Shown piece after piece: positions 7,071 to 8,414 of a stretch of DNA of 8,933 nucleotides; position 1 is the stretch's first letter; each line of letters starts with the position of its first letter. The stretch is from the IMG/VR virus record IMGVR_UViG_2681813273_000009; one strand, 5' to 3'. This DNA is from a virus (taxonomy: Duplodnaviria > Heunggongvirae > Uroviricota > Caudoviricetes). The position numbers and the translations under genes were made by a program. The notes beneath the pieces are model-generated. The model ran no database searches and was not told where the DNA came from. It worked only from the letters and a program-made list of their open reading frames with translations.

Positions 7071-7110
7071 TATTGAAGAATTAATTACGCGTCGTTATTA
7101 TGCGGCTCCC

Positions 7111-7186
7111 GGCCCTTTAGCTCAGTGGTGAGAGCGAGCGACTCATAATCGCCAGGTCGCTGGTTCAAATCCAGCAAGGGCCACCA
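7111..7186 (+). tRNA. tRNA with anticodon CAU, most likely tRNA-Ile2 (ileX/ileZ-like); Met cannot be excluded from sequence alone
   Basis: Hand-folded cloverleaf: acceptor ggccctt/aagggcc, D-stem gctc/gagc, anticodon loop cuCAUaa, T-loop ttcaaat, discriminator A and encoded CCA. Resembles E. coli ileX. Confidence 0.85.
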
Positions 7187-7193
7187 TCACATA

Positions 7194-7270
7194 CCGCCAT
7201 TAGCTCATCAGGAAAGAGCGCCAGCCTTCGAAGCTGGCTGCGCGGGGTTCAAGTCCCCGATGGCGGTCCA
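7194..7270 (+). tRNA. tRNA-Arg, anticodon UCG
   Basis: Hand-folded: acceptor ccgccat/atggcgg, anticodon stem ccagc/gctgg, loop cuUCGaa with U33 and A37, T-arm cgggg-ttcaagt-ccccg, CCA encoded. Confidence 0.75.
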
Positions 7271-7283
7271 TTATCTGCATCAT

Positions 7284-7360
7284 GCGTTGTTAGCTCAGCC
7301 GGACAGAGCAATTGCCTTCTAAGCAATCGGTCACTGGTTCGAATCCAGTACAACGCGCCA
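7284..7360 (+). tRNA. tRNA-Arg, anticodon UCU (reads rare AGA/AGG)
   Basis: Hand-folded: acceptor gcgttgt/acaacgc, anticodon stem attgc/gcaat, loop cuUCUaa, T-arm actgg-ttcgaat-ccagt, CCA encoded. Confidence 0.85.
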
Positions 7361-7374
7361 CACTTATTTTCCCT

Positions 7375-7400
7375 GGCTCGCTTTTGCGGGCCTTTTTTTT
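7375..7400 (+). terminator. Rho-independent terminator downstream of the tRNA cluster
   Basis: Stem ggctcgc/gcgggcc (one G-U pair), loop tttt, followed by eight T. Confidence 0.65.
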
Positions 7401-7507
7401 AAATGTCTCACAATTCAGACGGTTGACAGTTGTCTGTTTTGCGGGGAGTTTGTTAAAAGAAACTGGCATGGTGNGAATTAATTACGGACCGTTATTATTC
7501 TGCTCCC

Positions 7508-7583
7508 GGCCCTTTAGCTCAGTGGTGAGAGCGAGCGACTCATAATCGCCAGGTCGCTGGTTCAAATCCAGCAAGGGCCACCA
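7508..7583 (+). tRNA. tRNA, anticodon CAU (second copy, identical to 7111..7186)
   Basis: Sequence identical to the first copy. Confidence 0.85.
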
Positions 7584-7590
7584 TCACAAA

Positions 7591-7670
7591 CCGCCATTAG
7601 CTTATCAGGAAGAGCAGACGACACGATAACAGGGTTGTTGGTGCGGGGGCGGGTCCCCGATGGCGGTCCA
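7591..7670 (+). pseudogene. Degenerate tRNA-like remnant in place of tRNA-Arg(UCG)
   Basis: Acceptor halves (ccgccat...atggcggtcca) and D-stem are retained, but the anticodon arm cannot be folded and the T-loop is 6 nt without the TTC motif. Confidence 0.5.
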
Positions 7671-7683
7671 TTATCGGTATTCA

Positions 7684-7760
7684 GCGTTGTTAGCTCAGCC
7701 GGACAGAGCAATTGCCTTCTAAGCAATCGGTCACTGGTTCGAATCCAGTACAGCGCGCCA
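7684..7760 (+). tRNA. tRNA-Arg, anticodon UCU (second copy, one acceptor-stem substitution giving a G-U pair)
   Basis: Identical to 7284..7360 except acagcgc instead of acaacgc in the 3' acceptor strand. Confidence 0.8.
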
Positions 7761-8414
7761 TATTCATTCTTCCAGATTCCTTCCGGCAGAGCCTTATACT
7801 GAAATATACCTGGCTCAGGATATTGTTGAAAATATTTTATGTTTGTCAAAAATAAAAGTTCTGTTAAGTATTGATTGAGTGTTTGTTATACGGTCTAATG
7901 GTTTTTTCAGCATTAAATATTTATCATTCATATGGTGTGGGTAGAGTGAATATTGATGAGGCGTCGGGGTGTTTCATCCTTAGGCAGCGTATTGATATAG
8001 TCAATGCAGCACGAGCAAAGGCCTTCAGCCGTTTGACAGTTTTGTTCTGTACTCCTGATCGTCTTTCGGGAAGAGACGTTATTATTCTGAATAGTGATGC
8101 TATACAGAGGGTTTGCGATGAGTTCATGGTTGCTAATTCAGAATTATTTGCTCTTGTTCAGGAGTACAACAGAATAGCCAGGACCTGTGGTATGGATGAA
8201 CTTCGGATTACTCATCTGGGGTAGATACATATCTGGATTATCACCTGTTACGGTAAAAAGTGATTGCTTACTGTTTTTGTGAATGGCATTGCAGCAGCCG
8301 GATAATGTCAGTGCTGGCTGACGGTGTGCTGGTGGCGGGTGTGGTGGTTGTTGCTTTCCCGTTGCTGAAAAAGAAAACGCCAGACTGTTAGCCGGGTATC
8401 AGTTAGCGGGAGAA
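7761..8414. other. AT-rich insert (about 650 bp) between the second tRNA cluster and the conserved downstream element; candidate moron cassette
   Basis: In copy 1 the tRNA-Arg(UCU) is followed by a terminator and a conserved element; in copy 2 it is followed by this AT-rich block, and homology to the element resumes at about 8415. Confidence 0.5.
7898..8224 (+). CDS. Hypothetical protein inside the AT-rich insert (109 aa from ATG 7898; track ORF starts at TTG 7871)
   Basis: Only sizeable ORF in the insert; no convincing Shine-Dalgarno, and a 67-aa antisense ORF overlaps it. Product not recognised. Confidence 0.3.
   Translation: MVFSALNIYHSYGVGRVNIDEASGCFILRQRIDIVNAARAKAFSRLTVLFCTPDRLSGRDVIILNSDAIQRVCDEFMVANSELFALVQEYNRIARTCGMDELRITHLG

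Follow-up and report, generated by a model that had tools for sequence, protein, structure and literature searches.

Lambdoid and Shiga toxin (Stx) prophages such as 933W, VT2-Sakai and the Stx2a phages carry an ileZ-argN-argO cluster of tRNA genes at a late-region site downstream of the Q or DNA-methyltransferase genes, and 297 phage records match this cluster, many of which annotate all three genes. Here we analysed a stretch of 8,933 nucleotides (nt) from a virus of the Caudoviricetes (IMG/VR record IMGVR_UViG_2681813273_000009; this whole stretch is called the window), which is the nin/Q/late region of a lambdoid E. coli prophage and contains two such clusters at the same kind of site, with the same gene order and the same ileZ and argO sequences. 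Cluster 1 is a canonical member of the group formed by the clusters of 933W, VT2-Sakai and the Stx2 phages, whereas the argN slot of cluster 2 is occupied by a non-tRNA derivative at 7591-7670, hereafter psi-argN. We conclude with good confidence that psi-argN is a dead argN allele of lambdoid prophages lying in its usual middle slot, and that the tandem placement of the two clusters is most likely an artefact of a chimeric scaffold.

Several described phages and prophages carry comparable elements. The middle element of the Stx2e phage phiP27 has the same 28-nt replacement of the anticodon arm, with 92% identity over the element, and the GenBank record of that phage annotates ileZ and argO only. 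The phiP27 type retains a canonical T loop (TTCGAGT) and a GCUC D stem, whereas the window allele is further decayed, with a G-rich T loop of 6 nt and a D stem containing a U-G pair. In the cluster of the E. coli 042/mEp460 type, with the order Q, ileZ, psi, argO, DUF3927, the element shows no difference from that of the window, but the cluster is single rather than tandem; mEp460_ev081 and over 1,000 complete E. coli genomes match the element together with its flanks (100 nt) at 100% identity. In stx2i prophages described in 2026, most strains had two annotated tRNA genes, given as 'tRNA-pseudo-tRNA-Arg', compared with Ile-Arg-Arg in the reference strain (PMC13641118). We found no paper naming ileZ, argN and argO together, and the psi element surfaced in the literature only in brief remarks on a middle tRNA termed pseudo or unknown. 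The element is nevertheless already known, standing in thousands of public records either unannotated or labelled 'tRNA-OTHER', 'pseudo' or 'unknown', and the finding is an ordinary one with nothing new in kind.

The middle element of the second cluster

The window was searched for tRNAs with ARAGORN and with the Rfam covariance model RF00005 (gathering threshold 29 bits). ARAGORN called five tRNAs and RF00005 recovered the same five at 58-72.5 bits, bearing out the coordinates and most of the details that the original prediction, a reading of the sequence without database searches, had given for both clusters. On the plus strand, cluster 1 comprises ileZ copy 1 at 7111-7186 (anticodon CAU, 72.5 bits; homologous loci are named tRNA-Ile by the Prokaryotic Genome Annotation Pipeline, PGAP), an intact argN encoding tRNA-Arg(UCG) at 7194-7270 (58 bits, no stem mismatches, canonical T loop TTCAAGT) and argO copy 1 encoding tRNA-Arg(UCU) at 7284-7360 (70.1 bits). 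Cluster 2, on the same strand, has ileZ copy 2 (CAU) at 7508-7583 and argO copy 2 (UCU, 68.0 bits) at 7684-7760. Alignment of the clusters confirmed that the two ileZ copies are identical and that the argO copies are one substitution apart with pairing kept, as had been claimed: the sole difference, A>G (7353 A versus 7753 G), turns U4-A69 of the acceptor stem into U4-G69.

Between ileZ and argO of cluster 2, with spacers homologous to those of cluster 1 in the two-cluster alignment, lies psi-argN (7591-7670, plus strand), an 80-nt tRNA-Arg(UCG) pseudogene compared with 77 nt for argN. ARAGORN made no call on it, and RF00005 gave no match either at the gathering threshold or at E<=10 in a 540-nt search, so that the covariance-model check proposed in the original prediction came back negative. 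The acceptor stem is a full 7 bp (CCGCCAU/AUGGCGG), followed by U and an encoded CCA, and its halves are identical to those of argN, in agreement with the lengths and the conserved acceptor halves first reported. The D stem (GCUU/GAGC) is likewise kept and paired, though one C>U relative to argN makes a C-G pair into U-G, and the D loop is short of one A.

The anticodon arm has been exchanged. A 28-nt segment at 7616-7643 (AGACGACACGATAACAGGGTTGTTGGTG, plus strand) stands in the alignment for the 23 nt of argN that extend from position 26 through the anticodon arm and the variable loop. Its alignment to the argN arm scored -9 against a shuffle mean of -8.8, with 53% of shuffles equal or better; a heavily mutated argN arm in place of a replacement was rejected because the similarity is only at shuffle level. 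No donor of the 28-nt arm was found in L001-L133 (~1.1 Mb), which yielded chance 11-mers only, and a check by eye for a reverse-complement or template-switch source gave no match. The adjoining T arm (7644-7659, plus strand) is degenerate, with an intact stem CGGGG/CCCCG and a 6-nt loop GCGGGT. The original prediction had taken both the anticodon arm and the T loop for unrelated sequence; this stands for the arm and fails for the T loop, whose stem is intact and which is linked to TTCAAGT via intermediates in other loci. Its interpretation of the change as an internal replacement, and not as an intron-containing tRNA or another isoacceptor, agrees with psi-argN being a non-functional argN derivative.

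The element had also been described as unfoldable, which we could not support, as RNAfold predicts a cloverleaf-like minimum free energy structure of -28.9 kcal/mol. In this structure, the acceptor and D stems have 7 and 4 bp, the site of the anticodon arm is taken by a 7-bp hairpin closing on 3 nt, and the T stem of 5 bp carries a loop of 6 nt. The z-score of the fold is unremarkable (-1.3 with CCA and -2.1 without CCA). A 5-bp stem with a 7-nt anticodon loop cannot be drawn on the sequence, and the 6-nt loop GCGGGT is not the 7-nt T loop with T54, T55, C56 and A58 expected of a tRNA. In all, psi-argN failed three of the four tRNA features tested, passing on its acceptor stem, discriminator base, CCA and D arm, and thus combines clear argN homology with the loss of elements essential for function, as does a pseudogene. 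Lacking an anticodon loop and, in this allele, the T-loop consensus, it cannot act as a decoder. Matches to YrlA (Y RNA-like) over ileZ and psi, at 16.2 and 19.9 bits against a gathering threshold of 69, were dismissed as a generic tRNA-like domain without significance.

A single event thus swapped the 23 nt of argN for 28 unrelated nt and thereby removed the anticodon loop; T54, T55 and A58 of the T loop were lost separately by point substitutions, with the gain of a slippage-prone G run. The resulting RNA would be neither chargeable nor decoding. It would probably be co-transcribed with the flanking conserved ileZ and argO. Given its intact acceptor and T stems, RNase P and 3' processing may still cut it out of the transcript, after which it would be degraded. 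Sitting as it does between two selected genes, psi-argN would persist by hitch-hiking.

Spread of the allele and decay of the argN slot

A 100-nt query centred on psi-argN matched 1,863 of 5,426 complete E. coli genomes (about a third), ~1,820 of them at >=90% identity, with 2,336 matching sites in total. By identity class, 1,040 complete E. coli records were at >=99%, 583 at 95-99% and 200 at 90-95%, and matches below 90% take in argN alleles, L010 among them, whose anticodon arm is intact. Phage records matching at >=90% numbered 23, including mEp460_ev081 (100%) and phiP27 (92%), and the psi allele was present in 36 of the 127 IMG/VR and reference clusters. In all loci inspected, psi was the middle element of a single ileZ-psi-argO cluster, with a Q-type antiterminator, DNA methyltransferase or helix-turn-helix gene upstream and DUF3927, TerB or stx2e downstream. 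The original prediction had the change arise in the second copy of a tandem pair. This claim falls, because roughly one in three complete E. coli genomes, as well as phiP27 and mEp460, has a single cluster whose lone middle element is the same allele. A pattern scan of GTDB, with one genome per species, detected the replaced arm in the E. coli representative only, which points to a young allele restricted to phages of E. coli. In annotation, PGAP left the G-rich psi type unannotated in six complete genomes and assigned 'tRNA-OTHER' to the phiP27 type and the L008 variant, both of which have a canonical T loop.

To sample the slot blind to its content, IMG/VR was scanned for the invariant ileZ 3' end, which gave 120 loci, and reference loci were added. 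The slot between ileZ and argO, shared by 135 loci, proved to be a mosaic. It contains canonical argN, the psi arm with a G-rich T loop, the psi arm with a canonical T arm (phiP27 type, L060, L097, L008), 63-nt forms without an anticodon arm (L025, L078, L086), microhomology deletions (L052, L113) and argN/argO chimeras joined in the anticodon loop (L032, L059, L105).

The T loop can be followed across these loci as a series, TTCAAGT > TTCGAGT > TTCGGGT > GTCGGGT (L010) > GGCGGGT (L096) > GCGGGT (psi). L010 and L096 have decayed T loops and retain an intact UCG anticodon arm; decay of the T loop thus proceeded through point substitutions and did not depend on the exchange of the arm. The G run of the psi T loop (7645-7649 in the window) is G5, G6, G8, G9, G11, G12 or G13 depending on the genome (L003-L007, L064, L084, L136), which looks like homopolymer slippage in an unconstrained segment. 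Long-read homopolymer error could explain some of this variation, the range being too wide for error alone.

Relaxed constraint relative to the neighbouring functional genes was also apparent in the stems, in a comparison whose power is limited by low divergence. Fourteen distinct psi variants set against the predicted structure showed no compensatory pair change, and seven of nine variable pairs departed solely via unpaired cells, for example U7C, G68A and G69A (acceptor stem) or G>C and U>G (new hairpin); a further variant, U8G, changes an unpaired conserved position. As controls, 129 of 135 loci had an ileZ with unaltered reference pairing and a canonical T loop; for argO, stems were perfect and the T loop canonical in 95 of 113, and a compensatory swap was seen in its T stem. 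Among argN alleles that have an anticodon arm, 36 of 71 have intact stems together with T54 and A58. The common O157:H7 allele has an A52-C62 mismatch, an A6-A67 mismatch and G58 (T loop TTCGGGT), and alleles with these three changes are still annotated tRNA-Arg (L013, L011, L021, L023, L035 and others). These data suggest that argN may be non-functional far more often than annotation implies. On the sequence evidence, we consider that the entire argN slot is under relaxed selection and that psi is one frequent end state.

Further variation was seen around the slot. The chimeras L032, L059 and L105 join the argN 5' half to the argO 3' half at the shared CCTTC.AAGC, so that one gene is lost and the acceptor halves are unpaired. 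L041 has an argN body with a UCU anticodon reached by a single substitution. A tRNA-Lys(UUU) is the second-slot gene in L018, L014, L055-L057, L062, L072 and others, which share ileZ and the argN-like acceptor stem, and in L018 it is followed by tRNA-Thr(UGU) and tRNA-Gly(UCC). In L113, the psi element is joined via the octamer GGTTGTTG to the 3' end of the DUF3927 open reading frame (ORF), ~700 nt downstream, with deletion of argO and the intervening DNA; in the window, this octamer occurs within the replaced arm (7633-7640) and at 8345-8352.

Two other accounts of the element have to be weighed against a dead allele. That psi-argN is a functional tRNA of odd architecture, with an enlarged anticodon loop or an intron that lets it escape standard detectors, could draw on the 'tRNA-OTHER' label of the phiP27-type and L008 variants and on an alternative pairing ACGAC/GUUGU, read from the sequence, which would leave an 11-nt loop. 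We nonetheless rejected a functional tRNA, to which we assign almost no probability, as ARAGORN and Rfam were negative for the phiP27 type as well as the window allele, with no Rfam match at E<=10 in either lineage, no regular anticodon stem-loop can be drawn, the T loop of the window allele lacks T54, T55, C56 and A58, and an anticodon cannot be assigned. Charging by the E. coli arginyl-tRNA synthetase depends on anticodon positions C35 and U/G36, and E. coli is not known to splice tRNA introns. Somewhat less improbable, though still very unlikely, is a maintained, non-decoding tRNA-like RNA whose novel hairpin is selected as an ileZ-argO processing mark, as a decoy (for example, of a host tRNA-targeting factor) or as a small regulatory RNA; if this were true, the variable G tract would tune expression or processing. 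The element is very common, keeps its acceptor, D and T stems and has a predicted cloverleaf-like fold, and three observations do count against its being simply dead: the 28-nt arm, for which no donor was found, is nearly invariant across two psi lineages that differ in the T arm and spacers; nucleotide diversity in psi is 0.022, below the ~0.09 of the adjacent spacers; and the low divergence among psi copies makes the missing covariation weak evidence. Recombination between lineages can account for the low diversity of psi while inflating that of the spacers, leaving small room for some constraint. Selection on the hairpin is in turn hard to reconcile with helix substitutions that break pairs without a single compensatory change, a T-loop G run free to vary from 5 to 13, an unremarkable fold z-score (-1.3), the filling of the slot elsewhere by deletions, chimeras and other tRNAs, and the young age suggested by the scan of GTDB representatives; a high frequency is expected of any sequence between two selected tRNAs in a mobile module.

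The tandem arrangement

In the text of the window, the original prediction of a tandem second cluster is correct, with psi-argN lying 397 nt downstream of the intact cluster; as a physical arrangement of DNA it is probably not real. The window contains six N-runs (512-576, 4129, 5331-5346, 6104-6121, 7474 and 8499-8504), and both tandem junctions coincide with them, so that the pair lacks the uninterrupted sequence of a real tandem duplication. J1, where the block of cluster 2 joins that of cluster 1, is the single N at 7474, and J2 is the six N at 8499-8504. For the 18 N at 6104-6121, the flanking bases are contiguous in a homologue (...GACCCGCC|GTACTTT..., encoding TDPPYFKV), and these N are therefore inserted gap symbols and not one-for-one masks.

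A comparison of the window with itself by blast revealed repeats across five of the six N-runs, with the preceding sequence recurring on the far side. Thus, 445-511 equals 577-643 (100%), 3102-4128 matches 4130-5156 across a single N (96.3% over 1,027 nt), 5158-5330 matches 5347-5527 (95%), 7078-7372 matches 7475-7773 (87.7%, covering both tRNA clusters) and 8416-8498 matches 8559-8641 (92.8%). In addition, a 132-nt segment containing the argO 3' end, the terminator and the first 38 nt of STnc100 is repeated perfectly on the plus strand at 7342-7473 and 8505-8636, flanking the block 7475-8498, and its second copy starts with an isolated argO 3' fragment (AATCCAGTACAACGCGCCA, 8505-8523, plus strand). 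Truncated copies of STnc100 (first 38-40 nt) at 7436-7473 and 8459-8498 each stop exactly at an N-run.

Compared with single prophages of complete genomes, the window is collinear within blocks and jumps backward at 4129, 5331, 7474 and 8499. The 1,024-nt block 7475-8498 (plus strand), which extends from the promoter region through the first 40 nt of STnc100, is 99.6% identical by blastn to the single ileZ-psi-argO-DUF3927 region of the E. coli 042 prophage (L134) and is probably a contig of a second prophage placed by scaffolding. An O121 prophage, in which argO continues through the 132-nt segment into STnc100 unbroken, matches the surrounding block 5347-7473 at 95.8% and block 8505-8933 at 98.8%. 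The complete STnc100-family small RNA at 8600-8789 (plus strand, Rfam 123.6 bits) is accordingly the native continuation of cluster 1, as seen in the uninterrupted argO-to-STnc100 sequence of L135.

Junction J1 was absent from the 5,426 complete E. coli genomes, and its pattern, with the N fixed or as a gap of 0-8 nt, had zero matches in IMG/VR and the Joint Genome Institute (JGI) metagenomes. Complete-genome rows that seemed to cover the junction queries in full were discounted, because the rows shown join at least two pieces and the loci inspected are single clusters. Counted over 137 sequences including the window (locus labels run from L001 onward), ileZ occurs twice in the window, once in 135 of the other 136 and not at all in one. 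We consider it most likely, from the sequence pattern, that the tandem placement arose in assembly or scaffolding, with contigs of two or more related prophages or strains apparently strung together over N gaps or unresolved repeats to give the scaffold seen here. Since the repeats across N-runs give the window this chimeric look, the second RusA/Q copy (4130-5330) and the long ORF at 3383-4414, which reads over the N at 4129, are also suspect.

A real tandem would require that two related prophages or sister copies recombined illegitimately at GAAT (J1) and GAATCC (J2), placing a 1-kb 042-type block into an O121-type late region, with the N standing for local sequencing ambiguity. The case for an artefact is open to objection here, as the N-runs at both junctions are circumstantial, the artefact is deduced from sequence patterns, and short homologies of this kind are compatible with genuine illegitimate recombination. 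Microhomology is indeed present at both junctions, GAATCC being common to the STnc100 5' end and the argO T loop, and the slot is recombination-prone, as the argN/argO chimeras and microhomology deletions of other loci attest. We still regard genuine recombination as unlikely, in view of the location of J1 and J2 in N-runs within a window where five of six N-runs precede a repeat of the prior sequence, the 1,027-nt pair at 96.3% parted by a single N, the 18 N between contiguous bases, the perfect 132-nt duplication flanking the block, the absence of the junction from complete genomes, IMG/VR and JGI metagenomes, and two ileZ copies in none of 135 other loci.

Cluster 1, neighbouring genes and significance

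Cluster 1 is preceded on the plus strand by a sigma-70-like promoter (TTGAAG-17-TATTAT, 7073-7101) located 10 nt 5' of ileZ copy 1, a pattern match from a consensus scan, and is closed just after argO by an intrinsic-terminator-like hairpin (7375-7392) with a T run, together at 7375-7400 (plus strand, pattern scan), an identical copy of which lies at 8538-8563. With these elements bracketing it, the cluster looks like a self-contained polycistronic unit, which suggests, at the level of pattern matches, that its tRNAs could be expressed autonomously in the lysogen and not solely via the late promoter. The -10 hexamer TATTAT also occurs before cluster 2 (7492-7497), and the 042-type cluster has the same -10 hexamer with a weaker -35 (TTGCGG, read off the sequence). 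In the 042-type cluster, no terminator directly follows argO.

Further upstream, ORFs at 1947-3005, 3006-3386 and 4411-5265 are DUF968, RusA and Q-like antiterminator genes by homology to annotated prophages, and a DNA methyltransferase ORF lies at 5994-7070 (ORF list and annotation of homologues). The 18 N at 6104-6121 split the DPPY catalytic motif of the methyltransferase while keeping the frame; the ORF is listed at 358 amino acids and is therefore six residues longer than the gene of the closest complete genome (352 amino acids, 1,059 nt). The methyltransferase gene is followed by the tRNA region and then by the complete STnc100 small RNA at 8600-8789. In the nin region, a sok antisense RNA (1044-1219, Rfam 112 bits) overlaps a short ORF (1157-1369), and, as complete genomes have HokD annotated at the corresponding site, the two probably form a type I toxin-antitoxin module, which is unrelated to psi-argN.

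Because the window appears to be a chimeric scaffold, any duplication seen in it, whether of the RusA/Q region or of the tRNA clusters, should not be taken to reflect how the genome is organised. The finding has little biological import, and its main lesson concerns data quality. For the phages themselves, argN is shown to be dispensable and to decay in many lineages while ileZ and argO are kept, a loss that fits the view that Stx and lambdoid phages chiefly need decoders of AUA and AGA/AGG.

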